A stretch of 64,000 bases of DNA from an uncultured Lachnoanaerobaculum sp. (GCA_938015485.1 CALLVU010000128.1:4427-68426), one strand, 5' to 3'. Numbered from the stretch's first letter, positions 12-25,000 are shown. The notes: generated by a model from the letters alone, not told the origin. Numbers and translations: made by a program.

Positions 12-1127
12 TTGGATAACAAAGAGATGTCTATCACAAGTGATAGAGAGTATAAAAAGCTATTGTTGGAGTTAAAAGAGAAAGTAAGAAGTAGCCAACT
101 TAAAGCTGCAATAAAGGTAAATTATGAGTTGTTAGATTTATACTGGACTTTGGGAGAATATATTGTAAGAAATCAAGAGCAATATTCATGGGGAGATGCC
201 TTTATAAAATCGTTGGCTAAAGATTTACAAAAAGAGTTTCCAGATATGAAAGGTTTTTCTGAAACAAATATTAAGTATATCAGAAGATGGTATTCATTTT
301 ATATAAAAGGGCTACAAGGTGTAGCCGAATTAGAAAATAACGACAGCAATTCAAAAGGACTACAACCTGTAGCTCGATTTTATGAAAGAGTTATTAACCA
401 TATTAAACAGATACCGTGGGGACATAATCAAAGGATAATAAATAAGTGTAAAACCATTGATGAAGCCATATATTATGTTAATAAAACTATTGAAAACGGG
501 TGGAGCAGGAATGTACTCGTACATCAAATTGAAAGCGGATTATATGGCAGGGAAGGAAAATCTATAACAAACTTTGAAAAAAGGTTACCTGCTTTACAAT
601 CAGATCTGGCAAGACAGACGTTAAAAGATCCATATAATTTTGATTTCCTTACCATTCGTGAAGGATATGATGAAAGGGAACTTCAAAAAGAACTGGTTGA
701 CAAGATTTCTGATTTTTTACTTGAACTGGGTGAGGGATTTGCTTTCATAGGCAAAGAATATCACATAAATATAAATGGGGATGATTTTTATATTGATTTG
801 CTGTTTTACAATTTGAAACTCCATTCTTACATTGTTATAGAACTGAAAGCGGAGAAGTTTAAGCCGGAACATTTAGGACAGCTTAATTTCTATGTGACAG
901 CAGTGAATAGAGAACTAAAAACTGATAGAGATAATGCTACAATTGGACTTCTTATTTGCAAAGATAAAAACGATGTCGTTTGCGAATATTCATTAGAACA
1001 AATATCACAACCTATAGGTATAAGCCAATATGAGATTACTAAATTATTTGAAGCAGAATATAAGAGCAGTTTGCCGAGTATTGAAGAAATAGAGAAAAAG
1101 ATCAAAGAAATAGATACGGATAATTAA
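12..1127 (+). CDS. YhcG-like PDDEXK nuclease (DUF1016 family)
   Basis: 371-codon ORF (TTG at 12, first ATG at 27). N-terminal LYWTLGEYIV..WGDAFIKSLAKDLQKEFPDMKGFSETNIKYIRRWY and C-terminal DLLFYNLKLHSYIVIELKAEKFKPEHLGQLNFYV..TIGLLICKDKN match the YhcG/DUF1016 layout as I recall it. Confidence 0.75.
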   Translation: MDNKEMSITSDREYKKLLLELKEKVRSSQLKAAIKVNYELLDLYWTLGEYIVRNQEQYSWGDAFIKSLAKDLQKEFPDMKGFSETNIKYIRRWYSFYIKGLQGVAELENNDSNSKGLQPVARFYERVINHIKQIPWGHNQRIINKCKTIDEAIYYVNKTIENGWSRNVLVHQIESGLYGREGKSITNFEKRLPALQSDLARQTLKDPYNFDFLTIREGYDERELQKELVDKISDFLLELGEGFAFIGKEYHININGDDFYIDLLFYNLKLHSYIVIELKAEKFKPEHLGQLNFYVTAVNRELKTDRDNATIGLLICKDKNDVVCEYSLEQISQPIGISQYEITKLFEAEYKSSLPSIEEIEKKIKEIDTDN

Positions 1128-1428: not shown

Positions 1429-1702
1429 GTTGGAGCGAAGAACGTGTATGAGGATATAGAAAATATAGAGAAAATTATCCTGAATGTAAGGGTAGTTATT
1501 TAGTAATGCGATAAAATTTCTTATTAGTCTTTTATAAATATAGTAAACAAATAAAATTTTGCACTATGAAGTTTAGTACAATAAAATATATAAACATATA
1601 TAAAATATTACAAAATACTGAGGTGATTATTTAATTATATCGTTACAAGATATTAAGAACAGATAAAATAATAAAAAAAATATAAGTATACCGTATACAT
1701 TG

Positions 1703-1731
1703 TTGGAATTATACAAGATAAGTAATATAAT
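1703..1731 (+). promoter_or_regulatory. Sigma-70-type promoter (diverged copy of the esxA promoter)
   Basis: TTGGAA, 17 nt, TATAAT. It occupies the same relative position as the esxA promoter at 5643..5671, upstream of RBS AAGGAGG and the ATG at 1771. Confidence 0.5.
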
Positions 1732-1770
1732 ATAATTGTTCCCAAAATAAAACACAAGGAGGACTCTTCT

Positions 1771-1908
1771 ATGGCAGCACAGTTTGAGTCATTACAGCCT
1801 TCATTCAATCAAATGGATCAGTTGATACTGGACATAGCAAAGCAGTGTGATGACGTGGCAGATGCAACTCAGGCATTAGATGAAGAGATTGCAAGCAAGT
1901 TTAAGTAG
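1771..1908 (+). pseudogene. esxA derivative with a 153-nt in-frame internal deletion (45 codons, WXG hairpin lost)
   Basis: MAAQFESLQPSFNQMDQLILDIAKQCDDVADATQALDEEIASKFK. This is codons 1-2 joined to codons 54-96 of esxA (5709..5999). The retained part and the downstream sequence are near-identical to the full copy. Confidence 0.85.
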
Positions 1909-1920
1909 AAGTTAGTTTTG

Positions 1921-1992: not shown

Positions 1993-2009
1993 GAATTTAA
2001 AGGTATAAA

Positions 2010-2756
2010 ATGCAAAATAGAAGACTGAGTAAGAATGAACAAGGAATAATAGGTATTATTGCAGTAATAGCTTTTGTGGTTGGACTGGTATTCCTTAGAG
2101 ATATGCTGGTAAAAAGGGGAGTGAGCATTACTATGTTAACAGAGTTAGATTATATAAATGCAGCAGAGTATTACATGCAGAAAAAATACGGAGAGAAGTT
2201 TGAAGGAGAGTATGTATATGAAGGTAGCGTGTATGTACATCCAAAGTCAAAACCGGAGTGGCATGTGGTAGTGGACTTTGAGAGTGAGGGAGGTATGACA
2301 TCTTTTCATGATAATTATGTAGGATACCTAAAGAAAGAAGAGCTTGAGAAGTATATTTATGAGCTGATAAAACCTATATATGGGGAGTGTAAGGTTTACA
2401 TACATCCATATGGTTTTGCACTTGATGACAGCTGGAACAAAGGTGTAGACATGAGAACATATGAAAGTATTGGAATGTATAATGCATACATATTCACGTC
2501 TAAACAAGGAGAAAGTATAGAGGAAGATTTTAAAAGAACATGTGAAAATTTTATAAATAAAGACTTACATGTAGGTGATCTATCAGTTACATATATAAAA
2601 AAAGAAGAGTTTGATAAATTTGAAGAAAGCTTGATAGACTACACATTTAATAAACTTAAGTTTTACTATAGAATCTCGAGTGTATACAGTAAGGTGGATA
2701 AGATAGGATTTGGTGATGTAGATATTTTGGAAGGAGATAAGAATTATGGCAAGTAA
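2010..2756 (+). CDS. Membrane-anchored protein of unknown function (candidate immunity factor for the adjacent lipase-fold protein)
   Basis: 248-aa ORF with a single N-terminal TM helix (IIGIIAVIAFVVGLVFL) after a basic N-terminus. No recognisable domain. Its 3' end overlaps the start of the next gene by 11 nt. Confidence 0.6.
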   Translation: MQNRRLSKNEQGIIGIIAVIAFVVGLVFLRDMLVKRGVSITMLTELDYINAAEYYMQKKYGEKFEGEYVYEGSVYVHPKSKPEWHVVVDFESEGGMTSFHDNYVGYLKKEELEKYIYELIKPIYGECKVYIHPYGFALDDSWNKGVDMRTYESIGMYNAYIFTSKQGESIEEDFKRTCENFINKDLHVGDLSVTYIKKEEFDKFEESLIDYTFNKLKFYYRISSVYSKVDKIGFGDVDILEGDKNYGK

Positions 2757-4503
2757 TAGGCCTACAGATGATGAGCTACAAGAGAAGGCACTATATGATA
2801 TTATTCAATATCTACCATTGGATAAATTAGATATAAGTGAGTTTAAAAACATAAATGATATAGTTAGATTAGCTAAAAACAAGGAAAAGTTACTAGGTAA
2901 AATTGAAAGTAAGCTAGATGAAGAGGGCAAGTCAGATAAAAAAGCCATAGAAGAAAATCTCCCGGCAATAGAGGCAATCTTAAAAGACAGACCTGAACTT
3001 GGTGAAGCCAGAATATCAAATATGAGCTGGAAGGATAATGATGGTGACAGGAAAAAAGATCACAATCCAAAAGGAATGCAAGCTTGTACATTTGAAAGAG
3101 ATGATCAGGTATATATATCATTTAGAGGGACGCCGGCCAGATCATGGATTGATAATGCAAAAGCGTTTGTTGAGGATTTGTATACAGCAGTAGGTATAGC
3201 CAGGACAGAGATAAAAGTGGATACAGAGTTAAAAAGATACACATCTCCAATGCAGGAAGAAGCATTGGATTATATGGAATCATTAAAAAAGAGTGGAGTT
3301 TTTGAAAAATATGGCAATGTGTATGTGACCGGACATTCAAAAGGTGGCAACGAGGCTACACTGGTAACAATGGTATATTCGGATGTGATAGACAGATGTA
3401 TAAGCGGAGACGGTCAAGGCTTTTCACCTGAGTTTGTAAGATATATGAAAAAGACTCTTGGACCGGAGAAATTTGCTGAGATTCAAGATAAGATGTATGG
3501 ATTTCATGCCAACAATGACTATGTAAATGTTTTGGGAGTATCTGTCATAAAAGATGAAAATAAAATATATTTTATACCGGAGATAAAACTGGAAAGCGTT
3601 ATAGACTTATTGTGGAACCACCTGCCTACTGCAATGGTAAATGTAAAAACCGGAAAGATAGCACAGGTATCTGAGCAAGGTGCATTGGGAAAGTTTGTAG
3701 CAAAAGTAAGTGAGAAGCTTATGAAATTAAATCAAAAAGACAGGGAAGATGCAGCGATTACAGGTATGTCACCTCTACAGTATTTATATGCACATGAGTC
3801 GGTAACGTCAGTTAATCCGAATTTTTTGATAAATTGGTGTGAAACATTTATGGATAAGGCGGATGTTGTTGAAAGCTTTGGAAACGGTATTACGATATTA
3901 GGTAATATAATCGGTGAGACGTTAACTGAAAAAGAGGGAGAAGATTTCGTAAGATATATAGTGGATGAATTTGGTGATAAAAATATATGGATAAAAGACT
4001 TAGGAAAGGCATATGACAGTCTTGACTATGGAGATAAAGCTCCTGAATTAATAAAAAAGTTTATTTCGGACAGAGTAGATGAGATACAGGGATGGATAAA
4101 AGATAGCTTTGATAGATATTGGAAGGCGTATGATAAGTATAGTGAGTCGGATTTATATGAAAAAAGAGAAATAGAAGAATATAATAAATGTAAAGCATAC
4201 GGCACCTCCGACCTTGGAACAGTAGCAATAAACTATTCCAAAACAAAAGAACTTGTGAATATACTTGATGAAATGAATGACTTGGTTGAGGGTAGGATAC
4301 TGCCTGAAATGGAAGATATTGCAGACAGTTTGAGGAGACTGAGTTTTTGGAAAGTAAATGTTAGAGACTGGACGGATATAAAGGACTCTATAGAAAAGAA
4401 CAATAATACAAGAAAAATATTCAAAGAAAGAGTCATAAACTACTACAATTCGTGCGAGATTATGGAGGCTAAGTTTGTAGCCGGTATGTATGGAGGAAAG
4501 TGA
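2746..4503 (+). CDS. Alpha/beta-hydrolase (DUF2974/Mbeg1-like, lipase class-3 fold) with helical C-terminal domain; candidate T7SS effector
   Basis: 585 aa. ACTFERDDQVYISFRGT, YVTGHSKGGNEATLV (GxSxG nucleophile elbow), later NNDYV and WNHLP as possible Asp/His. No signal peptide. The last ~180 aa are charged and helix-like. Confidence 0.7.
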   Translation: MASNRPTDDELQEKALYDIIQYLPLDKLDISEFKNINDIVRLAKNKEKLLGKIESKLDEEGKSDKKAIEENLPAIEAILKDRPELGEARISNMSWKDNDGDRKKDHNPKGMQACTFERDDQVYISFRGTPARSWIDNAKAFVEDLYTAVGIARTEIKVDTELKRYTSPMQEEALDYMESLKKSGVFEKYGNVYVTGHSKGGNEATLVTMVYSDVIDRCISGDGQGFSPEFVRYMKKTLGPEKFAEIQDKMYGFHANNDYVNVLGVSVIKDENKIYFIPEIKLESVIDLLWNHLPTAMVNVKTGKIAQVSEQGALGKFVAKVSEKLMKLNQKDREDAAITGMSPLQYLYAHESVTSVNPNFLINWCETFMDKADVVESFGNGITILGNIIGETLTEKEGEDFVRYIVDEFGDKNIWIKDLGKAYDSLDYGDKAPELIKKFISDRVDEIQGWIKDSFDRYWKAYDKYSESDLYEKREIEEYNKCKAYGTSDLGTVAINYSKTKELVNILDEMNDLVEGRILPEMEDIADSLRRLSFWKVNVRDWTDIKDSIEKNNNTRKIFKERVINYYNSCEIMEAKFVAGMYGGK

Positions 4504-4504
4504 T

Positions 4505-4834
4505 ATGGCATGCAGATGTAATGATATAGCTGCTGCGGAGCATGATAGGGAAGTGTTGCGTGATATGCTGGACAGAATATGTGATACTGAGAATCGTTAC
4601 AATGAAATCAGAAACAGGTATGGAGATATAATAAATACCGTGGGTATGGCAATCTTCTTATTAGAAGATGAGTACAACAGCGCTAAACAAAGAATCGAGA
4701 ATACGGTTGCTGTGCAAGAGGATGATATAAGAAAATATAAGAGTCATGTAAATAACAGTTTATCAAATCTTGAAAATAAGATATCGAGAATGGAAAGAGA
4801 AGATGAATGGTTCCATGCACATGATGATGATTAA
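4505..4834 (+). CDS. Small alpha-helical protein, candidate effector helper/chaperone
   Basis: ATG at 4505, 7 nt after GGAGGA; the track's ATG at 4490 lies inside the previous gene. ~109 aa, coiled-coil-like, immediately downstream of the lipase-fold gene. Confidence 0.6.
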   Translation: MACRCNDIAAAEHDREVLRDMLDRICDTENRYNEIRNRYGDIINTVGMAIFLLEDEYNSAKQRIENTVAVQEDDIRKYKSHVNNSLSNLENKISRMEREDEWFHAHDDD

Positions 4835-4845
4835 GGAGGATTAAG

Positions 4846-5151
4846 TTGGGTAAGACACAGATAGTATGGAAATACTCCAATATAGAATTGTTACTTAATA
4901 TTATAGAGAATGCCAACAATGATATAGAAGAGCTGATGTCTGAGATAAGAGAGCAGAATAGAGTATTAAGTGAGAGTATGTCAGGTTCAAGTAAAGAATC
5001 ATTTGAAAGCAGTTATCTAAAACTACATAGTCATATGATAAAGCTAAGGATTGACTTGGAAGATCTTGTTGCAAAGGGAAGAGATGCCGTAAGACTGACA
5101 AAGGAACAGGATGAAAAAATATCGGGAAAGATAGGTAAAAGAAAGGGTTAG
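4846..5151 (+). CDS. Small WXG100-like helical protein (degenerate motif)
   Basis: TTG start 6-7 nt after AAGGAGG. 101 aa. A central SGSSKESFE sits where WXG100 proteins carry WxG..a..F. Confidence 0.5.
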   Translation: MGKTQIVWKYSNIELLLNIIENANNDIEELMSEIREQNRVLSESMSGSSKESFESSYLKLHSHMIKLRIDLEDLVAKGRDAVRLTKEQDEKISGKIGKRKG

Positions 5152-5153
5152 TT

Positions 5154-5465
5154 ATGGATAACAAAGAAACAGACCTCTATCTAAAAAACGAATTGATATA
5201 TGATACTGTAACAAAATATGTTGAGAATCTTAAAAAGGTAGAAAAACAAGTAAAGTATATATCTACAAGGATGAAATCCACAAGTATAAGTGAGTGGGGA
5301 GGTTCGGGTAGAACCGGATTTGAAGAATCGCTTAACAAATGGGTTGTTCAGGCCGGTGAAGTGGAAAAAGAGATAGATGCACATAAGAATATAATAGATG
5401 AATTGCTAAAAAGTTCAGCAAGTCTATTTAAGGGTGAAAAAGATATAACTGATAATATTGAATAG
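5154..5465 (+). CDS. WXG100-like protein
   Basis: 103 aa. Central EWGGSGRTGFEESLNKW gives a WxG motif between two predicted helices. Confidence 0.65.
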   Translation: MDNKETDLYLKNELIYDTVTKYVENLKKVEKQVKYISTRMKSTSISEWGGSGRTGFEESLNKWVVQAGEVEKEIDAHKNIIDELLKSSASLFKGEKDITDNIE

Positions 5466-5642
5466 AATGATAATTTTGGGAGGGCATATGAACAAAATTT
5501 TGCGCTATGAAGTTTAGCACAATAAAATATACAAACATATATTAAATATTACAAAATACTGAAGCAATTATTTATTTATACTTCTATAAAATATTAAAAC
5601 ATGTAAAATAATAAAAAATATAGAATTATAATGTACATACTA

Positions 5643-5671
5643 TTGAAAATGCACAAAGCAAGTGATATAAT
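5643..5671 (+). promoter_or_regulatory. esxA promoter (sigma-70 type, extended -10)
   Basis: TTGAAA (5643..5648), 17 nt, TATAAT (5666..5671) preceded by TGA. RBS AAGGAGG lies ahead of the ATG at 5709. Confidence 0.55.
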
Positions 5672-5708: not shown

Positions 5709-5999
5709 ATGGCAGGACAGATTAGGATTACACCTGAACAGATGCATGCAAGAGCAGGTGAGTTTAGAAATGCGGAGTCGGAGTACTCAAGAGTAATTAG
5801 TACTATGAGAAATCTGATAAACACATTGCAGGGTGAATGGGAAGGTGCGGCAAGTGAGAGCTTTGCAGCACAGTTTGAGTCATTACAGCCTTCATTCAAT
5901 CAAATGGATCAGTTGATACTGGACATAGCAAAGCAGTGTGATGACGTGGCAGATGCAACTCAGGCATTAGATGAAGAGATTGCAAGCAAGTTTAAGTAG
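5709..5999 (+). CDS. esxA: WXG100 family type VII secretion target EsxA
   Basis: 96 aa. MAGQIRITPEQM...LQGEWEGAASESFAAQFE is a canonical WXG100 helix-WxG-helix. Strong RBS and promoter. Confidence 0.95.
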   Translation: MAGQIRITPEQMHARAGEFRNAESEYSRVISTMRNLINTLQGEWEGAASESFAAQFESLQPSFNQMDQLILDIAKQCDDVADATQALDEEIASKFK

Positions 6000-6100: not shown

Positions 6101-6400
6101 ATGCAAAATAGAAAACTGAGTAAGAATGAACGATGAAGTAGGGTTGAAGGATGGATATAGTATTAACAAATGCATTGCTATAATATTAGCCGGAAGGATA
6201 ATGATGGTGACAAAAAACAAGATCACAATCCGGAGGGAATACAAGCTTGTACATTTGAAAGAGATGATCAGATATATATCATTTAGAGGAACGCCAAGAA
6301 AATCATAGCGAGATTATGGAGGCTAAGTTTGTAGCCGGTATGTATGGAGGAAAGTGATACGGCATGCAGATGTGATGATATAACTGATAATATTTAATAG
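6101..6400 (+). pseudogene. Mosaic scar of a deleted TM-protein/lipase/helper module
   Basis: 6101..6131 matches the start of 2010..2756. About 6190..6300 matches 3031..3135 of the lipase-fold gene (about 88% by eye). About 6305..6375 matches 4452..4525. About 6378..6400 matches 5444..5465. The track ORF 6126..6308 is a chimera of these fragments. Confidence 0.8.
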
Positions 6401-6422
6401 AATGATAATTTTAGGAGGGCAT

Positions 6423-8531
6423 ATGAACAAAATTTTAAAGTCGACAAAGTTGATAGTGGTAGCTTTAAGCATATGTATGCTGTGTAGCGGTATAGTTCTC
6501 GGATCTATTTCCAATACAGAGATTCCACAAAATATTAATACAGCTAATAATTATCAGACTATTGAAAATGACAAGTCATATAAAGTGGTGTCCACTAAAG
6601 ATATAGCTGTAGTGAACTTGGATGACGGAGTAAAGGTAAAAGGAAAGAAAGCATACTATGCCGGGAAGATAATAACACTTCCGAATGAACATTTTAACAT
6701 GACGGGATTGGATGATGCCAGAAACGGATTAAAATCAGGAAAGTATGGTGCATACATAGTAATACCTGCCACATTTTCAAAAGCGGTGGAGAGTATAAAC
6801 AATGATCCACAAAAAGCCACAATAAAATACACGGTTAATGCGGATAATAATGACGCATCACTTGCAAGTATTGTGAATGATATAAATTCATTTGCATCTG
6901 TTGTAAGTGAAAATATAACATTTATATATGTGAGTGCAATATTGGAAGAGTATCACAGAGCTCAGGACAATACAAAGGTAATACTAAAAAATGACAGTAT
7001 AGACCTTGACAATATAAACAGCATATCGCCTGAAAGTTTATTGGGCAGATATGAGAATGTTAAAGAAAATAATATAGATTTTAAGTCTACAGATATAGAT
7101 TTGGATAAATATAATATAGAAAATGAAAATATAGTTGATTCGTTTTCAAGGGAACTAAGGGAAGCCAAGGAAGAAAATGAAAGAAACTTTGATAATATAA
7201 AGAGAGAAGGGGAAGAAGTAAGAACAGGTGCAGACAGGTTTGGGAGATTTTTTGAAAGCCTTACACCACTGAAGGATGCTTCGGGAAACAGTGTATACTC
7301 AAACGGATTTACAAATATTGAAAGACTTTTAAGCGGTCATAATGACAGGTTAAATTCGTCTTTTAATATGTTTGATGAGATATTTAAGAGACAGAATGAA
7401 CAGACAAAGAATGTCTTGCAGGAAGAGGCGAATGTGCATCTTGCATCAGAGTCAAACGCACTACGTAGTCGAATTAATCTCGAAATAGGCGGTATCATAG
7501 AAAACAGCTACAGAAGAATATTTGAAGAGGAGTATCAAAATATACAAAGAAGCGGTATGGAGCTTATGAGGAGATATATAGAAAATGTGATAAGGCATGA
7601 ACTTGTTATGGATACAGAGGAGAGAGGTTATCTTCTGTCAAGGCTTGCTACAGCTTCAGATGCAATCATGCGTGAAGATATAAATACGGCAACAATGTCC
7701 AATGCGGTAAGTAGAATGCGTGATAATATTGTGCCTACATTTAATGTAACGATGAATCCTTTTGTCGGGTCAAATACATACTTGACAGGACTCAATACGG
7801 CAGCTGATGCGGATTTTAATACAATAAAAACGACATTAAATTTCCCGATAGAGGAACTGAATGAAGTTTTTAGGAATGATATAGAAGATGTTATAGATAA
7901 CTCGGTATCAAGTCTGGCAGCAGAGGTAAATGATAAATCAGGGGAGTTTAACGAGGTGCAAAGAAGATATATGGATTTGCTGGATGACTACAATCCATAT
8001 GCACATCTTAATGACAGCTATATGTCAAGAGCTGCAAATGAACTGGAGAGAAGTGCAAACATCGCATTTTCAGAGTTTAGAGATAAACAGACGGACGATG
8101 AGAAGCAAGTCTATGACATCATGAGATTAAGCGATGAGAATATCAGACTGTATGATGAAAGTATAGGTAAAGCTTACGACACTACAATGAAGAACGTAGT
8201 AGACGTGGTAAACGCACTTAGAAGTAAAAAGGAAGACACAAAGTCAAAGAACAGTGAGCTTATGAGTGATTTTTCAGATAAGCTTTCATATACAAGACTT
8301 GGAAGTATAGGAAATAAAGATGCGTATGACTTTATATCAAGTCCTGTAGAGATATCACCTAATGACGACAGCAATATAGAAGTACAAAGTGACTATATGT
8401 ACAATATGCCGTCAAAGAAGAAAAGCATCTTAGATAATAAATATACAAAAGGTGCTATATCTGTCGGAACGATAAGCTTTATTATATTGATGGCACTGGT
8501 GATAAATTCTTTATTTAAAAAGTTGGTTTAA
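6423..8531 (+). CDS. esaA: Type VII secretion protein EsaA (YueB/YhgE-Pip-like)
   Basis: ATG at 6423 follows GGAGGG. N-terminal TM, KYGAYIVIPATFSKAVESINNDPQKATIKYTVNADNN (EsaA/YhgE signature as I recall), long helical ectodomain, C-terminal TM. Sits directly after esxA. Confidence 0.8.
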   Translation: MNKILKSTKLIVVALSICMLCSGIVLGSISNTEIPQNINTANNYQTIENDKSYKVVSTKDIAVVNLDDGVKVKGKKAYYAGKIITLPNEHFNMTGLDDARNGLKSGKYGAYIVIPATFSKAVESINNDPQKATIKYTVNADNNDASLASIVNDINSFASVVSENITFIYVSAILEEYHRAQDNTKVILKNDSIDLDNINSISPESLLGRYENVKENNIDFKSTDIDLDKYNIENENIVDSFSRELREAKEENERNFDNIKREGEEVRTGADRFGRFFESLTPLKDASGNSVYSNGFTNIERLLSGHNDRLNSSFNMFDEIFKRQNEQTKNVLQEEANVHLASESNALRSRINLEIGGIIENSYRRIFEEEYQNIQRSGMELMRRYIENVIRHELVMDTEERGYLLSRLATASDAIMREDINTATMSNAVSRMRDNIVPTFNVTMNPFVGSNTYLTGLNTAADADFNTIKTTLNFPIEELNEVFRNDIEDVIDNSVSSLAAEVNDKSGEFNEVQRRYMDLLDDYNPYAHLNDSYMSRAANELERSANIAFSEFRDKQTDDEKQVYDIMRLSDENIRLYDESIGKAYDTTMKNVVDVVNALRSKKEDTKSKNSELMSDFSDKLSYTRLGSIGNKDAYDFISSPVEISPNDDSNIEVQSDYMYNMPSKKKSILDNKYTKGAISVGTISFIILMALVINSLFKKLV

Positions 8532-8547
8532 GTAAGTAAAGATTCTA

Positions 8548-8615
8548 TAGCCCATGCATATATGTTATTGATAAGTTAAAGTATTTTAGTTTATTAAGGT
8601 AAGTGTATGGGCTAT
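8548..8615 (+). repeat. Conserved intergenic hairpin element, copy 4 (after esaA)
   Basis: TAGCCCATGCATATATGTTATTGATAAGTT...GTGTATGGGCT. Stem AGCCCATGCA/TGTATGGGCT with one G-U pair. No clear T-run. Confidence 0.5.
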
Positions 8616-8661
8616 ATATTAACAGCAATGGATTTTATTAGTATGCATATAAAGGAGAGAT

Positions 8662-8928
8662 ATGAACAAAACGATATCAAATAATACATTAATTGTGGAC
8701 AGATTGGTAGATGATATAAGTGAAAAATCAAGTGCATTTTCATTGAATTATGTAGATCTAGGATTGGACTGTACAAATGAAGGTGTGGATGAGGAATGCA
8801 ATGATTGTTACGAGGATGCATCACATTTTACAGAAGAATACAAGATTTATATTGATAATTTAAAGTCCTATATAAAATCAATCAGTGAAGCTATGGTTGA
8901 AAAGGACAAGGGGTTTTTTGGAAAGTAG
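8662..8928 (+). CDS. Small LXG-associated helper-like protein
   Basis: 88 aa, directly upstream of the LXG gene. Paralogue of 17637..17909 (shared DLGLDCTN...SE(A/S)M.EKDKGFFG). Confidence 0.6.
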   Translation: MNKTISNNTLIVDRLVDDISEKSSAFSLNYVDLGLDCTNEGVDEECNDCYEDASHFTEEYKIYIDNLKSYIKSISEAMVEKDKGFFGK

Positions 8929-8945
8929 ACGATAGAGGAGAGAGT

Positions 8946-10490
8946 ATGGGTATACATATAAATAAAAAAAATATTATGGAAAAGTCATGGAGTATGAGAA
9001 ATAACATAAAAACAACAAAAGATCGTGCGTCTGTTATATTCAGGAGTATAGAAAACTTTAATTATACAGAAAGCATTCTTATGGGAAAGGCATGGGATGC
9101 GGCAAGAGAATACACAAATAAGGTTCAACTTCCTATACTTAGAATGTATATAGAATATTTGGAACTTGATGATGAAGCTTGTGGTAAATATGCAAGGGCA
9201 GCAAGTAAACTGCCGGGTTACGAAAAGCTGGATGAAGATGTCATAATAAACAAAAAAGAAAAATTTGAAAGATTACTTGATAGAGAATATAACAGAACTA
9301 ATCCAAGAGATACAATTATAATGTTCTATGAGAAGCGAATAGATAGATGTGAAAGACTGTTAATGTATATAGAAGATTTTTGCTGTGAAGTACATAATAT
9401 ATTTGCAGAAGTATTGTCAGTTAAGTGGCAGTTATATAGTTTACATAACAATTTAAAAATGATAAGTATTGACGAGAGAACCAATACAATGGTGGAACCT
9501 GCAGGTAATGAGAATATAAAAAGTATATTAAAGGATTTAGAAAAATATTATGCTGAAATAAAGGAAAAGGATTTGTTAAAAAGGAAAAATGAACTAAATG
9601 ATTTATATACGAATTATGGTGCAAGGGTAGTTATAGAGAATGTTCTTAATTATCCCGAAGAGAAACGTTTATATAGTGATATAGAAAAAGAAGACTATAT
9701 AATGCTTGCAAAGGCACTTATGGAAAGCCGTGGTGAAGCATATATAAGTAATGTAAAATTAACTCTGACAAATTGCTATGACTTTGAGAAGGCCCTTTCT
9801 GATTTTGAAAATGATATGCCAAAGGTTAGTTATATATACGAGAAAAATGACAAGATGGATAAAGTACGAATCGGATTAAGCAGCTTAATAGAAAGATTAA
9901 ATAAGGATACAGCCATTACAGAGATACAGAATGAAAAAGTAAGAGATGACAGACAAAATCTGATGCAACTTACACAAGCCTTTTTATCTCTATGTGCTTA
10001 TGAACATAGAATAGTAAAAGATAAAGTTGAGCTTTATGAAAGTGATGCAGATCCGGTAAAGATAAATGTAAGTCGAGACAGTAAAGATAATCTTGAAATT
10101 AATTTTAAAGAGTATGCGGAGACCGTCGAAGGTGATGCAAATTGGAGAGATTATAAGGATATAAGTTTGATAGTATCTGCTCCTAAGACAGGAGAAGATG
10201 CCGGTATAGGTGTAAGTGGAGAAGGTTGGGATTATGTAGAGCATGGATTTGAAATTGATAAAGCAAAATACTATAGTATCGGTAACAGTATTGGAAAGGC
10301 AGGTTTAACTATTTATATAGGAAATCTGGGAGTAAACTTAGGAAAGATATTTGGCGGAAAGGTAGGTACAGCACTGGGAAAATTGGGAGATGCATATACT
10401 GTTATGGGATGTGCTTCCGAAATCTCAGATATACTGAGTGAAAAAGACCAAAAAATATTTGAAAAAGGAAAAAGTACAAGTGAATTATAG
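8946..10490 (+). CDS. LXG-domain T7SS effector, copy 1 (514 codons up to an in-frame TAG)
   Basis: N-terminus MGIHINKKNI...SILMGKAWDAAREY...LPILRMYIEYLE fits the LXG domain. C-terminal Gly-zipper segment GNLGVNLGKIFGGKVGTALGKLG. Same frame as 10512..10847. Confidence 0.8.
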   Translation: MGIHINKKNIMEKSWSMRNNIKTTKDRASVIFRSIENFNYTESILMGKAWDAAREYTNKVQLPILRMYIEYLELDDEACGKYARAASKLPGYEKLDEDVIINKKEKFERLLDREYNRTNPRDTIIMFYEKRIDRCERLLMYIEDFCCEVHNIFAEVLSVKWQLYSLHNNLKMISIDERTNTMVEPAGNENIKSILKDLEKYYAEIKEKDLLKRKNELNDLYTNYGARVVIENVLNYPEEKRLYSDIEKEDYIMLAKALMESRGEAYISNVKLTLTNCYDFEKALSDFENDMPKVSYIYEKNDKMDKVRIGLSSLIERLNKDTAITEIQNEKVRDDRQNLMQLTQAFLSLCAYEHRIVKDKVELYESDADPVKINVSRDSKDNLEINFKEYAETVEGDANWRDYKDISLIVSAPKTGEDAGIGVSGEGWDYVEHGFEIDKAKYYSIGNSIGKAGLTIYIGNLGVNLGKIFGGKVGTALGKLGDAYTVMGCASEISDILSEKDQKIFEKGKSTSEL

Positions 10491-10511
10491 ATTCCTGTAA
10501 ATAAATTTAAT

Positions 10512-10847
10512 TTGGGTTATGTGTCATCGTGGATAAGAGAAAATGTTCCTAATGGTGAAAAAGATTATAATATCAATACATATATGTATACTATTTATCC
10601 AAGTTATACAGTGGATGTATATGAAGGTGTTAAGCCAACCACAAAATTGATAGACATCTGTAATAAGAATTTATCTAAGGGAGGAAGACTTGAAGAATAT
10701 GCAGTTGAACTTGGATATGATGAAAGTAACCCTATAACAGTTGATAATATATGTAGTAGACTATATGAAATAGAACAAATGAGGGTAAAGAGTTCGGATA
10801 TTAAAAATAGGATTAAAAGAACAGTAGATATTACATCAGAGGAGTAG
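10512..10847 (+). CDS. C-terminal continuation of LXG effector copy 1 (in frame after the TAG at 10488..10490)
   Basis: The frame is open from 10491. FNLGYVSS and NLSKGGRLEEYAVELGYDESNPITVDNI align with FNLFYVSS and NFSKGGYFEKYAKEMKYDESNPITEENI of the intact paralogue 17925..19799. Confidence 0.7.
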   Translation: MGYVSSWIRENVPNGEKDYNINTYMYTIYPSYTVDVYEGVKPTTKLIDICNKNLSKGGRLEEYAVELGYDESNPITVDNICSRLYEIEQMRVKSSDIKNRIKRTVDITSEE

Positions 10848-10851
10848 GTTT

Positions 10852-11334
10852 ATGCTAAGGAAATATAAGAAGATAATTTGTATAACCATAATTACTATTA
10901 TTTTATTTGTACTATATAATGTAAACAAAATAGCTTTTTTCCATGATCCGGAGTTTGAAAGATTAGTAAGAAAATCTAAAGCTAATAACATGGTTATGAC
11001 TGTAATTAAAAGGTATAAACCTATTGAAGGAATTATATGGAAGCGCAATTTAGAAAATATTGATATAGTAAGTATAGACTTTAGAGAGTATAAAATAAGA
11101 GATATAAGTGACCTGGTATATTTTAAGAATGCTAAATCAATATGGTTGGTATATTCAAGTGCATATGACGGAGATAAGAGTATATATGATGATGAGCATG
11201 TACTTGATAATTTATACAAAATAAAAGGTTTAAAATACTTGGATGACTTGCAATTATATCATTTAAAGTTAGATGATAAGGATATAGAAAATATAAAGGA
11301 GATGTTTCCGAATGCAAGAGTAGTTATTGAGTAA
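10852..11334 (+). CDS. TM-anchored mini leucine-rich-repeat protein (candidate immunity)
   Basis: 160 aa. Basic N-terminus plus TM, then IAFFHDPEFERLVRK (LRR N-cap-like) and ..IRDISDLVYFKNAKSIWL.. (LRR-like). Paralogues at 19796, 25671 and 29257. Confidence 0.6.
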   Translation: MLRKYKKIICITIITIILFVLYNVNKIAFFHDPEFERLVRKSKANNMVMTVIKRYKPIEGIIWKRNLENIDIVSIDFREYKIRDISDLVYFKNAKSIWLVYSSAYDGDKSIYDDEHVLDNLYKIKGLKYLDDLQLYHLKLDDKDIENIKEMFPNARVVIE

Positions 11335-11377
11335 ATATATAAAGACTTAGTCCGATGTCAAGATTGGGAGGTATAGA

Positions 11378-11650
11378 ATGAGAACAGACGAGCATAATTG
11401 TGATACCGGAAAGTTGCTTAGGGAAGATTATGAAGCAGCTTTTAAAGCATTTATTATTGAAAAAGAGGAACGAGAAGATATTTATAGACAGTGTAAGGAA
11501 ATAGATGAAGAACTTATAGAGTGTCTGGGGTATTGTGATGAAACCGAAACAATGGAAGAAGAATTTGCAGAGTTTAAAAAACAAAGTGATAGGGAAATTA
11601 GTAAAATGGAAGAGGAGCTAAATAATTTGAAAATGAAACTTGAATCGTAA
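11378..11650 (+). CDS. Small acidic coiled-coil protein (unknown function, effector-module member)
   Basis: 90 aa with RBS GGGAGG. Paralogue of 20489..20752 (EKEEREDIYR.C.EID..LI.CLGYC.ETE.MEEEF.EFKKQSDRE). Confidence 0.6.
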   Translation: MRTDEHNCDTGKLLREDYEAAFKAFIIEKEEREDIYRQCKEIDEELIECLGYCDETETMEEEFAEFKKQSDREISKMEEELNNLKMKLES

Positions 11651-11680
11651 AATAATCGACATAGGAGGAGACGGTAATTT

Positions 11681-12070
11681 ATGCAACTGGATTTGGATAC
11701 TAATGTTCTTAAGGTAAGGGATCAAAGTAATAAAGTGGCCCTTACGGATCAGTATCCCGATATCAATATTTTGACCAAAGAAAGTAGGGAAAAACTTGAA
11801 AATCGGGAGCTTGATAAGAATAGAAGATATGACGAGCTTATAAATAATTTGACATTTACCGTCAATGATGAACAGTTACCTAAGGAGCTTGTACAGCGAG
11901 AGATGAGAGAACTTAATATTTTCACCTCAAAGGCAGACTATTACAATTTGACATATAAAGATGAAAAAACTATAAGTCCAATATTTTCTATAATATTTTT
12001 AATATTTATGGGAAGCATTGGGCTTCTTTTTGCATTAAATCATGGAAAGAGGAAACAGCATGCACATTGA
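11681..12070 (+). CDS. essA: EssA-like small membrane protein
   Basis: 129 aa with one C-terminal TM (ISPIFSIIFLIFMGSIGLLFAL). Immediately upstream of esaB-essB-essC. Assigned by position and topology only. Confidence 0.55.
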   Translation: MQLDLDTNVLKVRDQSNKVALTDQYPDINILTKESREKLENRELDKNRRYDELINNLTFTVNDEQLPKELVQREMRELNIFTSKADYYNLTYKDEKTISPIFSIIFLIFMGSIGLLFALNHGKRKQHAH

Positions 12071-12284
12071 TTTTACACTACAAATAGATGATAAAAAAAT
12101 AGATTTAAGTATGAACAGCAAGCAGTGCATAGGTGAGGTCACGAAAGATGTCATTGGGATAAGAAAAGATTTACTCTCCGACTATTACCTCTCATGTATG
12201 CAACAAAGGATGATAAGTGCGTATAAAACATTGGAAGAGGAAAATATAAAAAACGGTGACAGATTAGTGGCGGTAAGGAGATGA
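12060..12284 (+). CDS. esaB: EsaB/YukD ubiquitin-like T7SS protein
   Basis: ATG at 12060 follows AAGAGGA. ~74 aa, MHIDFTLQIDDKKIDL...NGDRLVAV. Small beta-grasp-like protein between essA and essB. Confidence 0.7.
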   Translation: MHIDFTLQIDDKKIDLSMNSKQCIGEVTKDVIGIRKDLLSDYYLSCMQQRMISAYKTLEEENIKNGDRLVAVRR

Positions 12285-12285
12285 C

Positions 12286-13353
12286 ATGATTGAAATAAAA
12301 GTAAAAAACATTGATTTAAATATTGAAAAAGAAATCAGATTTCTTTTGGCAAATGAGAATAAACATTTATTGGATTGTGAAATAGAAGAGACGGATGATG
12401 AGTGTATATTCAAGTTTGATGATGAAGGACTATATGGGTTTGAAACAGTAGATGCACTCAGTAAAGAAGAGAAGTACAGGCTTTTGGTTAATATAGCGGA
12501 TATAGAGGAATTAAGTGAGGAATACTGCTTTTGCCTTTCACCTTCAAATATAGTATATGACATAAATCTTGTACCGAAAATTCTTATTAGAGACAAAAGA
12601 ACTAAAGAGTCTGATTTTTATATTCAATATAAAGCGATTGTTTCAAGCGTACTTTACAATAAATATACTTTTGAACAGTATATCGGTGGAAGTGCAAAGG
12701 TTCCTGAAAAGAGTTTTATAAAAAACATAGATGATACAAAAAGTTTGAAGGAAGAACTGCTGAAAAGATATTTAAAAGAGAGAGAAACAAACATTAATAC
12801 TAAGGTGCAGGTAAAGAAGTCAGAATACAAGAAATTAAAACTTTCAATACCGATTACAGCTCTTATAGCTGTGGGAATACTTGTATATGGTATTTTTGTA
12901 CAATTTGTAAGATTGCCGTATAAAGAAAATCTGATAACAGCCTATGGAAGTTATATGAGTTCAGATTATATAAAGGTTGAAGACACTCTACAGAGTATAA
13001 AAATTGAAAAGCTTCCAAAGGATGTGAAGTATATATTGGCAAGATCATATATATTTACGGAAGGTTTGACTACCGAGCAAAGAGATAATTTACTTGAGTA
13101 TACCGATATTAATATAGATACAAATATATTTGATTTTTGGATAGCACTTGGAAGATGTGAATTTGATACGGCAGAGGATATTGCAAAGAAGATAGGTAAC
13201 AATGAATTTCTGTTATTCACATATATCAAGCATAGTGCATATCTAAAAGCCGATGTAACTATAACAGGAGAAGAAAAAGAGAGTGCTATAAGTGATTTGG
13301 ATAAAAAGATAAAAGAGTTGAGTGAATCAATGGGGGTAAATAAGCAAGAATGA
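12286..13353 (+). CDS. essB: Type VII secretion protein EssB/YukC
   Basis: 355 aa. Cytoplasmic N-domain, central TM (LSIPITALIAVGILVYGIFVQFV), C-terminal ectodomain. Its stop overlaps the essC start (ATGA). Confidence 0.75.
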   Translation: MIEIKVKNIDLNIEKEIRFLLANENKHLLDCEIEETDDECIFKFDDEGLYGFETVDALSKEEKYRLLVNIADIEELSEEYCFCLSPSNIVYDINLVPKILIRDKRTKESDFYIQYKAIVSSVLYNKYTFEQYIGGSAKVPEKSFIKNIDDTKSLKEELLKRYLKERETNINTKVQVKKSEYKKLKLSIPITALIAVGILVYGIFVQFVRLPYKENLITAYGSYMSSDYIKVEDTLQSIKIEKLPKDVKYILARSYIFTEGLTTEQRDNLLEYTDINIDTNIFDFWIALGRCEFDTAEDIAKKIGNNEFLLFTYIKHSAYLKADVTITGEEKESAISDLDKKIKELSESMGVNKQE

Positions 13354-16300
13354 ATACATTGATCCTTTATAATAATAAAAAGTGTATTGAGATTTCATAT
13401 GATAAAGATGATATTGATAAAAATAAAGCTATAGAACTTGCATCTGATTATGGAATATCGGGTGGTGATATAGGATTTTGTTTGTTGAATACGAGTAAAA
13501 CTGATTATAAGTATGATCAAAAAATGTTAAAGATAGGTACAGATGAGTTTTGTGATGTTTTAATTAAAGCCGATAAAAAGATATTGGTCGTTATTTGTGA
13601 CGGAACTTTAAAAGTCATATATGGCAGTGTGTATATTAACGGAGCGATATGTGAGAATGGAGCATATGAACTTTTTGAAGGCGACAGTATTTTTATATCC
13701 GGTGTAAAAGTCGACTATTGTAAAGAGAAAATATCAATAACAGGAAATATATTGAATTCAAGTTTGAATCAGTCTTTAAATATAAATTCTTATGATAAGC
13801 TTGAGAGTGAATATAGAAGATCGCCAAGAATATATATGGATATGCAGGCGGAGTCTGTAGAGATAAAGAGACCTCCAAATAAGCCGGCCAAAGATAAGAA
13901 TGCTATATTAAAAAGGATTGCCGCACCGGCTCTAACATTAGCGATTACTGTAGGAGTAGGTATACTGTTAAAAAGAGGTATATTCATACTTATGTCGGCA
14001 GGAATGATGGTTGCTACAATAGTTGTATCTATAGTTACAGGTATACAAAGTGTTAAGGAGAGGAAAAATCAGGAAAAAGAAAGAACCGATAACTACAATA
14101 AGTATTTGTTGAATAAGCGAGGAAGTTTATACAGACTTAGAAAAAAACAGATAGAGTCGTTAAAATTTAATTATCCGGATATGAAAGCTATAGAGACACT
14201 TTGTGATAATTATTCCAACAGAATTTATGAAAGAGATTCCAATGATATAGATTTCCTCAATATATCAGTAGGTACTTCCGATATGAAGCCTTTGTTTCAA
14301 GTAAAATATGAAGAGAATATGGAAAATTCAGGTGAAGCATTGTATGAAGAAATGCTGAAACTGGGAAAAGAGTTTTCTATAATAGAAAATCTTCCATATG
14401 TTATAGATCTTAAAAAGACACATCTTGGATTGGTAGGAGAAAGAAAGTATGTATATGAGCTACAAAAGGCAATAATAAGTCAGCTTTGCTTTTTTCACAG
14501 TTATCATGATTTGGAAATTATACTTATAACAAATGAGGACGGCGGTAAAGTCTTTTCAAATTTGTTTTGGTATCCACATCTTAGACTACATGGTGTAAAT
14601 GTGAGTACACTTATATCTACAGGCAATCATGCGGAGCTTGTATTGGCAACTCTAACTACCATTTTAAAAGAGCGAAAAATGAAGTTGGAAGAAGAGAGAA
14701 AGGAACTTAGGTTTTCACCACATTTTGTATTTATATTAGATGAGCCGATATTTGTAGTGAATCACAGTATAATGGAGTATTTACAAATGAGTGGTGAAAA
14801 ACTTGGATTTTCTCTGGTATACAGTGCAGCCAAGCAGGAGAGTCTGCCTGATTATATAAAGACTGTTATTAAGGTGGATGGAAATGAATATGCGAAGATA
14901 GTGCTTAATCAAGGCTTCCTCATGAATAAGGATATAAAGCTGTATGATATAAAAGATACAGATATGGAAAAGCAAGCCAGAAGACTCTCAGGATTAAAGC
15001 ATGTCAAAGGGGTATTCAGTCAAATACCTGACAGTATCAGTTTTTTTGAAATGTTTAATATTAAGAGATTGGACGAACTTAATATAAGAAAAAGGTGGGA
15101 AGAAGCCTGTATTTATAAGTCCATGGCAACTCAAGTGGGTGTAAGAGCAAAAGATGATATAGTATATTTAAACCTGCATGAAAAGGCACACGGACCGCAC
15201 GGACTTGTAGCCGGTACTACGGGCTCCGGAAAGTCTGAGATATTACAAACAATTATATTATCACTGTCTGTAAATTTCTCACCTGAAGATATCGGATTTT
15301 TACTGATAGATTATAAAGGTGGAGGAATGGCAAATCTGTTTAGAGATTTACCTCATTTACTGGGAACAATTACAAACCTTGACGGTAGTGAGAGCATGAG
15401 AGCTTTGGCTTCTATTAAAAGTGAGCTTGGTAGAAGACAGCGAATATTCAATGAATCAGGAGTTAATAATATAAATGATTATACAAAATTGTATAAGTCA
15501 GGAAAAGTAGCTATACCATTGCCACATTTGTTGCTTATTTCAGATGAATTCGCAGAGTTGAAACATGAACAGCCTGAGTTTATGGCGGAGCTGGTTTCAA
15601 CCTCCAGAATAGGTAGAAGTTTGGGTGTACACCTTATATTGGCTACACAAAAACCGTCAGGTATTGTAGATGACCAGATTTGGAGCAACTCAAAGTTTAA
15701 GCTTGCGCTGAAAGTTCAAGATGTGGCAGACAGTAAAGAAGTGATAAAGACTCCAGATGCCGCACAGATAACCAATCCCGGTCGTGCATACCTACAAGTC
15801 GGTAATAATGAGGTTTATGAGCTTTTTCAATCTGCTTTCAGCGGTGCATATTTTGATGAAGAGACGGAAGGGGAAGGATTTGACAGAAGAGTTTACAGAA
15901 TAAACAATCTGGGGCAAAGAGAACTTATAAGTGAAGATAATAATACTCCGGACAATAAGGCAAATACCACACAACTTGCGGCAGTGGTTGAATATATAAG
16001 AGATGTTTATAATGAAGGTGAATATGTATCTGTAGATAAAACATGGTTACCGTCATTACCTGAAGTTATAGTAAATAAGCATATAGATAAAGAAGTATTG
16101 AAGACTGTGGATGATAAGCTTGATATTATGGCGGAAACAGGTATTGTGGATATACCGCAAAACCAGAGTCAGATAGAATTTATCCATGATTTTTTAACAG
16201 ACGGAAATATCGTTATATTCGGTTCACAAGGTGTAGGAAAGTCTGTTTTCCTAACTAATATAGCCATGACATTAGCCTTTAAAAACAGAACGGAGATTCT

Positions 16301-23339: not shown

Positions 23340-23911
23340 TGAAAATTAAAATTAGTATATTATTTTTAATAGCATGCCTGCTTACAGGATGTACGTCAGT
23401 AGTTGAAACTGTAAAATATATACATGATTCCGGTAAAATAGATAATTATATATATGGTGATGCAAAAGTGGCGAATGAATATATCGAAAAGATAGTACAG
23501 GCTTTAAATACTAATGATAGGGAGCTGTTAGCAAGCCTCTTTCCTGAGCATGCAAGGAGTAAGATAGATCATTTTGATGAAAAGATAGACTATATTATTA
23601 GAGAGAATGAGATTTGGCCGGGTTCGATAATAAGATATAAGCTTAATGAAGATAATAATTATCAATCAAGTTCCGACATGGGAAAAGTACAAAAGGTTAT
23701 ATATGCTAATACTACTATAGAATTTGCAAAGCCGAAAGAGAATGAATATAAAAAATTTGATTTAAGCATTGGAATGGAAATAGTTACTGTAGATGATTTT
23801 AATGAGAACAATGTAGGGATATCCATATTTGCTATTGGTGAGGGTGATTTTAATAAGGATGAAGTGGATAAAGAAAAAGATGGGTATGATATATATGCAT
23901 TTGGACACTAA
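23339..23911 (+). CDS. Lipoprotein (DUF5104-like), candidate immunity to the RHS C-terminal domain
   Basis: Lipobox LLTGC. 190 aa. Start overlaps the RHS stop (TGATG). LASLFPEHARSKID resembles DUF5104 as I recall. Confidence 0.65.
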   Translation: MKIKISILFLIACLLTGCTSVVETVKYIHDSGKIDNYIYGDAKVANEYIEKIVQALNTNDRELLASLFPEHARSKIDHFDEKIDYIIRENEIWPGSIIRYKLNEDNNYQSSSDMGKVQKVIYANTTIEFAKPKENEYKKFDLSIGMEIVTVDDFNENNVGISIFAIGEGDFNKDEVDKEKDGYDIYAFGH

Positions 23912-23928: not shown

Positions 23929-24234
23929 ATGGAAATTAAATCAAATATTGCCGGTATGGTAAATGCGGAGAATAATTATGATGTGTTTAAGTATAGGTTA
24001 AATTTAAGCAGGGAAGATTTAGTAAATATTCTAACAGATATTGATAATTATTGGATTGGAAGAAGTGGAGACAGCTTTAAATATATTTGTTGGTATTTAA
24101 AAATTTTATTGGATACAGGATATGAAGAATTGACCGGACTAAAAAATGAAATTACTGATTCAAAGAAATATATATATGATAATGACTATAATCTTTCGAA
24201 TCAGATACAAAGTAAGGAGCATATAAAAGTATGA
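23929..24234 (+). CDS. Divergent WXG100-like small protein
   Basis: ATG at 23929 after GGAG. ~101 aa. Central NYWIGRSGDSFKYICWYL gives WxG plus downstream aromatic residues. Confidence 0.5.
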   Translation: MEIKSNIAGMVNAENNYDVFKYRLNLSREDLVNILTDIDNYWIGRSGDSFKYICWYLKILLDTGYEELTGLKNEITDSKKYIYDNDYNLSNQIQSKEHIKV

Positions 24235-24973: not shown

Positions 24974-25000
24974 ATGTGGAAAGGAGGAAATAAAACCTGA
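24974..25000 (+). pseudogene. Scar of an RHS toxin 3' end (MWKGGNKT*)
   Basis: ATGTGGAAAGGAGGAAATAAAACCTGA matches the last codons of 20877..23339 (..MKWKGGNKN*). It has the same TGATG overlap with the following lipoprotein gene. Confidence 0.75.

Follow-up and report, generated by a model that had tools for sequence, protein, structure and literature searches.

The DNA considered here is a stretch of 64,000 nucleotides (nt) from an uncultured Lachnoanaerobaculum sp. (GCA_938015485.1 CALLVU010000128.1:4427-68426), and "the window" refers to this whole stretch. Between positions 2010 and 5465 it carries five consecutive open reading frames (ORFs), which encode a single-pass membrane protein (2010..2756, 248 residues), a predicted serine hydrolase (2746..4503, 585 residues) and three small proteins, H1 (4490..4834, 114 residues), H2 (4846..5151, 101 residues) and H3 (5154..5465, 103 residues). 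All of them lie on the plus strand, as does the neighboring machinery of a type VIIb secretion system (T7SSb), and all five were found exactly where a first-pass annotation of this DNA had placed them. That annotation had likened the group to the lipase effector TslA of Staphylococcus aureus, in which the enzyme precedes its targeting domain. Comparative genomics and profile comparisons support this likeness and nothing tested contradicts it. The five genes probably constitute one reverse type VII toxin cassette, with a lipase effector, its partners and an immunity protein, whose secretion, activity and immunity function we infer.

The hydrolase (2746..4503) is the candidate effector, combining an N-terminal Mbeg1-like domain of class-3-lipase fold with a C-terminal helical region that would act in targeting. 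In agreement with the hydrolase core anticipated from its FRGT and GHSKGG motifs, both of which are present, the protein matches the Pfam family Mbeg1-like (PF11187, formerly DUF2974) with a score of 32 bits, which exceeds the gathering cut-off of 21.1, and a database protein identical to it carries the annotation 'Mbeg1-like protein'. Lipase_3 (PF01764) reaches 20.6 bits, just under its cut-off of 22. Across an alignment of 98 relatives with 22-95% identity, residues G196, H197, G200, G201, D258 and H292 are invariant and S198 is nearly so; the FRGT motif (residues 126-129, 3121..3132), which we assign to the oxyanion-hole strand known from class-3 lipases, has an invariant G128 and an almost invariant T129. 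The conservation of S198, D258 and H292 defines a triad consisting of the predicted nucleophile Ser198 within GHSKGG (residues 196-201; codon 3337..3339), the predicted acid Asp258 (3517..3519) and the predicted base His292 (3619..3621). The annotation had also denied the protein a signal peptide and an N-terminal LXG domain, and rightly so: a hydrophobic N-terminus is absent, the maximum 19-residue Kyte-Doolittle score being 0.93 across the whole protein, and the Pfam LXG family (PF04740) gave no match at E<=1 to the whole protein or to its C-terminal parts. Searches of the PDB sequences with phmmer returned no significant match to the hydrolase, and tblastn found no match to its core in phage and plasmid collections.

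An AlphaFold2 model built on the 98-sequence alignment reached a predicted local distance difference test score (pLDDT) of 81 and a predicted template modeling score of 0.74, with most of residues 1-420 above 80; a shallow alignment of Lachnoanaerobaculum proteins only yielded a pLDDT of 50 and an unusable model. Foldseek searches with the whole model gave matches that were confined to the hydrolase domain. The top PDB entries were the feruloyl esterase A (FaeA) of A. niger (1uza, 1uwc), Lip2 of Y. lipolytica (3o0d) and the lipase of T. lanuginosus (1tib), all of which share the class-3 fungal-lipase fold. TslA and a second reverse lipase, TslM, have both been matched structurally to Lip2/3O0D (PMC10730906; PMC13560087). 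Since Lip2 is among the top matches here as well, the hydrolase differs from TslA and TslM in sequence family and not in fold class; the earlier statement that its family differs from that of TslA stands at the level of Pfam (Mbeg1-like versus Lipase_3), whereas the fold is the same. Among the Lachnoanaerobaculum variants, sequence variation affects a lid-like insertion close to residue 150 and the stretch 360-480. Distant relatives of the long form (at least 500 residues) also match DUF6792 (PF20591), which was rejected as an additional domain, as these matches overlap the same hydrolase core.

Behind the core, the model is all-helical from residue 313 to residue 582, and the last ~150 residues form three long helices. 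The helical part thus amounts to ~270 residues; its helical nature had been recognized from the start, and only its length, then given as ~180 residues, has to be revised. The last ~100 residues (4198..4500) are predicted to form a hairpin, in which the loop LSFWKVN connects two helices (497-531 and 539-582); we propose this hairpin as the targeting module for type VII secretion. These residues are almost invariant and represent the most conserved segment among the Lachnoanaerobaculum variants. The hairpin includes E574, the one nearly invariant residue of the entire C-terminal half (glutamate in 95 of the 98 sequences). The position four residues upstream of E574 is occupied by F in 62 sequences, by Y in 16, by C in 13, which are exclusively Lachnoanaerobaculum proteins, and by L in 6. 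The [F/Y]xxxE motif described by these positions lies at a median of 9 residues from the C-terminus, and as a sequence pattern it is similar to the motif conserved at the C-terminus of WXG100 proteins and to two export motifs, YxxxD/E and FxxxD (PMC13560087; PMC13492133).

Profile comparisons with HHalign, for which reversed-sequence controls gave P >= 0.015, relate this hairpin to the WXG100 family. The hairpin of 85 distant long relatives aligned with the WXG100 profile over its full length (93%, E 3e-7), and the distant hairpins aligned with their own WXG100 partner, termed d2, at 94.7%. The hairpin group of the window protein matched the distant hairpins over 91 columns (82.5%, E 1e-5; reversed control P 0.035). 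These alignments suggest that the proteins of the family end in a WXG100-like hairpin. When residues 300-585 served as query in an exhaustive search, only nine cluster representatives were returned, each of them a member of this hydrolase family or a fragment of one, and hence there was no evidence that this exact C-terminal module is reused on other toxin domains; a second homologue search with a mixed alignment again recovered almost solely Lachnoanaerobaculum proteins. Between helical cap and C-terminal hairpin, the distant long forms have a hydrophobic stretch of ~30 residues rich in Gly, Ala and Val (alignment columns ~620-690), where the Lachnoanaerobaculum proteins have a hydrophilic helical segment.

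The gene directly upstream (2010..2756) has the same orientation as the hydrolase gene, with which it shares 11 nt. Its product had been described as a single-pass membrane protein, which is borne out by a single strong hydrophobic segment at residues 11-29 (score 2.71); this segment is predicted to anchor an outward-facing domain of ~215 residues. The protein has no Pfam family, with no match to DUF576 (the family of the immunity protein Til1) or DUF1433 (that of Til2) at E<=1, and its relatives are likewise without a Pfam family. Homologues in distant Clostridia carry lipoprotein lipoboxes (GVTGC, GVGGC; loci L005, L007, L016, L021, L022, L039 and others) and the Lachnoanaerobaculum copies an uncleaved transmembrane anchor, both of which place the globular domain outside the cytoplasm. 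A single candidate immunity family thereby uses the two tethering modes that are split between Til1 and Til2 in Staphylococcus. The upstream gene is repeated in Lachnoanaerobaculum loci, where two to six copies that differ from one another (53-90% identity) occur among fragments of the lipase, and several non-identical copies together with toxin fragments are the pattern described for T7SS immunity genes (PMC13560087; PMC10730906). By analogy with these, the position, topology and copy number of the upstream protein make it the candidate immunity protein of the cassette. Arrays of the gene, resembling immunity islands, are found at L003:64-10011 (Lachnoanaerobaculum sp. OBRC5-5), L004:7810-8556 and L001:7456-8647; L003 also holds a second full-length lipase of 625 residues.

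The three small proteins downstream had all been called WXG100-like helpers, a description that fits them to different degrees. None of them reaches the gathering cut-off of the Pfam WXG100 family (PF06013, 27.3 bits), and phmmer searches against PDB sequences gave nothing significant for any of the three. H2 (4846..5151) clearly belongs to the WXG100 type, matching the WXG100 profile in HHalign at 99% (E 5e-18); its scores with Pfam WXG100 (19.9 bits, E 9e-4) and TIGR03930 (E 4e-6) are both below cut-off, and its sub-threshold PDB matches are WXG100 structures without exception. Its WxG motif has degenerated to SGS, within the SGSSKESFE that had been pointed out earlier. H3 (5154..5465) is a marginal case, carrying a WGG motif at the expected turn, within the previously noted EWGGSG, and scoring below cut-off with Pfam WXG100 (20.4 bits, E 6e-4) and TIGR03930 (E 7e-3); in HHalign it matches WXG100 with P 1e-3, the reversed control being 6e-3. 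H1 (4490..4834) shows no WXG100 signal, neither in Pfam nor in HHalign, and matched none of the known families, a YwqH-like similarity reaching an E-value of 0.013 only. It is retained as a helical partner candidate. An alternative start at 4505, used by gene callers on other contigs, would give a protein of 109 residues. The conserved C-terminus of H1 reads ...EWFHAHDDD, in which FHAHD (4811-4825) fits the FxxxD motif of Lap1-type partners. In Lachnoanaerobaculum, the export motif may have moved to this FxxxD in H1 from the end of the effector (4441-4500).

In order to place the cassette in a wider context, one genome per species was scanned, which yielded 79 loci from other species, and the best 80 genome matches were all from Clostridia. 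ORFs were called in the 79 loci and searched with the window proteins, and the hydrolase genes were divided into long forms of at least 500 residues (32 genes) and short forms of ~350 residues (50 genes). A gene for EssC, EsxA, EssB or EsaA lies within 10 kb of 25 of the 32 long forms and of 1 of the 50 short forms (Fisher p = 1e-13); a small ORF recognized by the WXG100 profile lies within 3 kb of 27 long forms and of no short form (Fisher p = 6e-17). Directly before the hydrolase gene, 20 of the 32 long forms have a recognizable homologue of the upstream protein. The full order of upstream protein, hydrolase and three small ORFs is kept at several distant loci, where the second and third small ORFs carry WxG and match Pfam WXG100. 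Long forms occur in Lachnospiraceae, Oscillospiraceae, Acutalibacteraceae, Ruminococcus, Merdimmobilis, Hydrogeniiclostridium, Acetivibrio and others, and the linkage between long form and T7SS has been retained across deep divergence. Most Mbeg1-like members found are stand-alone enzymes of ~350 residues without T7SS context; the WXG100-like C-terminal extension and the cassette context define a distinct Mbeg1-like subfamily. DUF2974 has also been listed among the domains of antibacterial effectors of the Xanthomonas type IV secretion system (PMC6536674). Beside the long-form hydrolases of distant loci (L005-L058) we found 21 ORFs homologous to EssC, and homologues of the EssB and EsaA of the window were detected solely in Lachnoanaerobaculum loci. 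The hydrolase family may therefore also serve T7SS variants other than T7SSb.

Several observations weigh against reading the five genes as a reverse toxin cassette. Neither the C-terminal region of the hydrolase nor those of 24 relatives, scanned singly, matched Pfam LXG, WXG100 or T7SS_signal, with coiled-coil noise only, and AlphaFold2 confidence is low for residues 430-585 (pLDDT 42-70). Both points suit the view that the protein is a cytoplasmic or membrane-associated esterase that neighbors T7SS genes by chance, its C-terminal helices serving structure or oligomerization and the small ORFs being unrelated WXG100 genes. We hold this to be very improbable, given that the long form, unlike the short forms, is tied to T7SS genes and WXG100-like neighbors across many families of Clostridia, that the hairpin of the relatives matches WXG100 at full length, and that the upstream partner is extracytoplasmic. 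Compared directly with WXG100, the hairpin group of the window protein gave a weak match of 8-18% that covers the first helix only, so that its link to WXG100 is transitive through the distant relatives and less certain for the window protein itself. Furthermore, position -4 of the C-terminal motif, which is aromatic in most relatives, is Cys in every Lachnoanaerobaculum protein, and among the partner candidates H1 matches no family and H3 only marginally resembles WXG100. The long forms may also form one clade, in which case the association counts related, non-independent loci and the p-values overstate their independence. Finally, the sole functional report on the Pfam family concerns its founding member, Mbeg1 of Gemella sanguinis, an NF-kB-inducing clone (PMC6867899), and points to possible effects on a host.

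The Gemella report bears on the target of the enzyme. A hydrolase of the same architecture could be exported by the T7SS and act mainly on the host or the environment, for instance on host lipids or in signaling, or it could have dual roles like TslA, which also contributes to virulence (PMC10730906); the upstream protein would then still protect the producer's own membrane. That the organism is a human oral commensal would accord with such a role. The non-identical copies of the upstream gene and the toxin fragments are, however, a hallmark of loci in which toxin and immunity act between bacteria, LXG and RHS toxins of antibacterial type are present in the same locus, and the hydrolase family is also found in Clostridia from rumen, rabbit and anaerobic digesters, all of which makes a main target outside the bacterial world unlikely.

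The region around the cassette bears the traces of a duplication. An esxA-type promoter had been proposed upstream of the cassette, and indeed the real upstream region of esxA has been copied there, as part of a tandem duplication that has since decayed: positions 1550-1785 share 82% identity with the stretch that precedes the intact esxA, 5491-5723. The copied promoter and 5' leader (1550..1771) include a -35/-10-like site at 1703-1731, which is the second-best sigma-70-like match of the region after 5643-5671; the two sites occupy equivalent positions in the two copies, and on this consensus match the promoter copy might drive the cassette. It is followed by an esxA remnant of 45 residues (1772..1909), in which the start codon is joined to the C-terminal half of EsxA through an internal deletion; by tblastn, the remnant matches EsxA residues 51-96 with 98% identity, and 1774-2046 are 98.5% identical to 5865-6137. 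At the other end, after H3, a 14-nt relic of the esaA start (5488..5501) marks the duplication junction, and 5442-5500 are 97% identical to 6377-6435, the stretch leading into the real esaA start at 6402. Mapping with blastn and tblastn revealed a decayed second copy of the cassette at 6101..6436, in which the initial 37 nt of the membrane-protein gene survive together with two fragments of the lipase, the start of H1 and the end of H3.

Taken together, the promoter copy, the esxA remnant, the esaA-start relic and the cassette relics indicate that a unit consisting of esxA promoter, esxA, cassette and esaA start was duplicated in tandem and decayed reciprocally. The first copy retains the cassette with the 45-residue esxA remnant, and the second retains esxA and esaA with only four short cassette relics; in related strains the genes simply follow one another as esxA, membrane protein, hydrolase, H1, H2, H3 and esaA. 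Because the relic lipase fragments are only ~90% identical to the intact hydrolase gene, they derive from a different allele, one allele having displaced another. The junctions of the relics within the 1550-6436 duplication overlap by ~10 nt, which suggests microhomology-mediated deletions. An assembly artefact was considered as the origin of the duplicated esxA region and rejected, since the same arrangement recurs in four independent oral metagenome assemblies. The locus illustrates cassette replacement, in that a whole esxA-cassette unit was duplicated and both copies then decayed reciprocally. Just 3' of the esxA remnant and of esxA, at 1909-2009 and 5999-6100, lies an inverted repeat (CCCATGTATT, ~45 nt, AATACATGGG, then CATTTTT), which was missed by a simple terminator scan because of its long loop. 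It could be a partial terminator that sets the ratio of esxA to downstream transcript.

The location between the core genes esxA and esaA, together with the presence of the cassette in every Lachnoanaerobaculum strain examined, is what one would expect if the hydrolase were an accessory of the secretion apparatus that remodels envelope lipids, comparable to the cell-wall hydrolase EssH, with the upstream protein as its anchor or regulator. In other Clostridia, however, the cassette has no constant position with respect to EssC and is absent from many T7SS loci. Moreover, the gene is polymorphic (in the lid and the middle region), duplicated, fragmented and replaced by recombination, which is typical of cargo and not of machinery. 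An accessory role is accordingly quite improbable, and we return to the hydrolase as exported toxin.

The T7SSb island claimed around the cassette proved to be a complete locus, with EsxA, EsaA-, EssA- and EsaB-like proteins, EssB, EssC, two LXG proteins and one RHS toxin. The intact esxA (5709..5999), the core WXG100 gene, scores 65 bits with Pfam WXG100 and 72 bits with TIGR03930. The machinery block (6402..17615), the proposed exporter of the effector, comprises genes for an EsaA-like (6402..8531), an EssA-like (11681..12070) and an EsaB-like protein (12042..12284), EssB (12286..13353; YukC, 256 bits) and EssC (13350..17615). An LXG protein module is interposed within this block (8946..10490) and the other one in the window follows it (17925..19799). 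Further downstream are a gene for an RHS-repeat protein with a C-terminal DUF4474 domain (20877..23339) and three DUF5104 genes (23339..23911, 24231..24812, 25000..25572), which are likely to represent another toxin with its array of immunity genes in the same island. Three ORFs of ~455 residues (26154..27551, 27612..28982, 29740..31101) are similar to the LXG protein encoded at 17925..19799 in its middle and C-terminal parts; they have no LXG N-terminus and no Pfam match, each is preceded by an ORF of ~150 residues, and they may be orphan toxin modules retained for recombination. The left edge of the island is occupied by a YhcG-type PDDEXK nuclease with a DUF1016 N-terminal domain (12..1127). 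The genes that flank the T7SS locus differ among related strains, an FGGY kinase being located upstream in L001 and downstream in the window (31114).

From the domain identities, the conserved catalytic residues, the gene order and its conservation, the association of the long form with T7SS genes and the profile-level similarity between hairpin and WXG100, we infer a mechanism in which the proteins form a complex that is secreted through EssC, the enzyme acts as a lipase or phospholipase that is toxic to bacteria, and the producer is immune. The 585-residue protein, having no signal peptide, would be synthesized in the cytoplasm. Its N-terminal two-thirds would form the class-3-lipase-fold serine hydrolase (Ser198/Asp258/His292), followed by a helical cap and a linker, and its last ~100-150 residues would form long helices that end in the WXG100-like hairpin. 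This C-terminal region would bundle with H1, H2 and H3 into a rod-shaped composite export signal, for which the hairpin loop (FW), the acidic E574 and the FxxxD-like end of H1 are candidate elements. EssC of the adjacent T7SSb would recognize the composite signal and export the complex. Once outside the cell, the hydrolase would attack the membrane lipids of neighboring bacteria, and the upstream protein, with its globular domain held on the external side of the producer's membrane, would bind and block the lipase domain and thereby protect the producer.

How the cassette relates to the reverse lipases that are already known can be judged from their descriptions. The Tsl1 system (TslA/B/C) of Staphylococcus aureus, Enterococcus and Listeria has a DUF576 lipoprotein as immunity protein and two partners, Tla1 and Tla2, and its genes are arranged as immunity gene, lipase and then partners (Garrett et al., 2023, PMC10730906). 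The cassette shares with Tsl1 the lack of a signal peptide, the order of immunity gene, toxin and small helical partners, the location in or near a T7SS locus and, at the level of a candidate, a surface-tethered immunity protein present in multiple copies. It differs in the hydrolase, for which Pfam gives Mbeg1-like with Lipase_3 just below cut-off, and in its immunity candidate, which is anchored by a transmembrane segment and shows no DUF576 match. As anticipated by the first-pass annotation, three small ORFs (101-114 residues) are present downstream rather than the two partners of TslA. The host range also differs, being Clostridia here and Bacilli for Tsl1, and the C-terminal module of the relatives of the window protein aligns with a complete WXG100 hairpin.

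The Tsl2 system (TslM/N/O/P), found in S. aureus with relatives in Bacillus and Listeria, has a single partner, TlaM (Higginson et al., 2026, PMC13560087). Its immunity protein Til2 belongs to DUF1433, is ~150 residues long, transmembrane-anchored and divergently encoded (PMC13560087), and since it is anchored in this way, Tsl2 is the closer analogue for the membrane-anchored partner of the cassette. Here, in contrast, three partner candidates stand against the single TlaM, and the immunity candidate has 248 residues, no Pfam family and a co-directional gene with an 11-nt overlap. The linker of TslM is long and unstructured, whereas its counterpart in the window protein is predicted to be helical, with high confidence to about residue 420. 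The canonical LXG/Lap systems of T7SSb (for example TelA-D and EsaD; PMC13492133) bundle a helical targeting domain with two or three small helical partners, as is proposed for the cassette, one of the partners having a C-terminal FxxxD-type motif, and they resemble the cassette in pairing a polymorphic toxin with adjacent, here candidate, immunity genes. They differ in that both domain order and gene order are inverted in the cassette, which has no LXG Pfam match and whose partners are not of the DUF3130/DUF3958 type. Unnamed reverse lipases have been noted at T7SS loci of Neobacillus and Paenibacillus (PMC11217815). In the literature searched, only Tsl1 and Tsl2 are described as reverse families, and no paper links Mbeg1/DUF2974 to type VII secretion. 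Given that the cassette departs from both in immunity family and number of partners, and from Tsl2 in gene orientation as well, it is most likely a third family of reverse T7SS lipases, common in anaerobic Clostridia and set apart from Tsl1 and Tsl2 by their descriptions.

A fuller version of this proposal is more tentative, and we would give it slightly less than an even chance. It holds that a third reverse lipase family, for which the name 'Tsl3' could be used, is widespread among oral, gut and rumen Clostridia, where it serves T7SS loci with other components unlike those of T7SSb, carries a complete WXG100 hairpin behind its cargo, and is accompanied by a new immunity family. If so, the effector would be an Esx-type substrate that carries an N-terminal enzyme, and the need for a free C-terminal [F/Y]xxxE tail would explain why the lipase is placed at the N-terminus. 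Lachnoanaerobaculum would have lost the aromatic residue of this tail, and the signal may have passed to H1 with its FxxxD. The new immunity family, with the upstream protein as its founding member, would comprise lipoprotein and transmembrane-anchored versions.

In August 2026, the discoverers of the reverse T7SS substrates counted two families, both of them staphylococcal-type lipases, and asked why lipases have the reverse build and whether further families exist (PMC13560087). A third family that is again a lipase would strengthen the rule that lipases are placed N-terminal to the T7SS signal, and it would bring in three partners as well as hydrolase and immunity families that differ from the known ones. 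It would extend the reverse architecture from Bacilli to the strictly anaerobic Clostridia of mouth and gut, and it would provide a first functional context for a family of surface proteins that has no name and for much of the uncharacterized Mbeg1-like/DUF2974 family.

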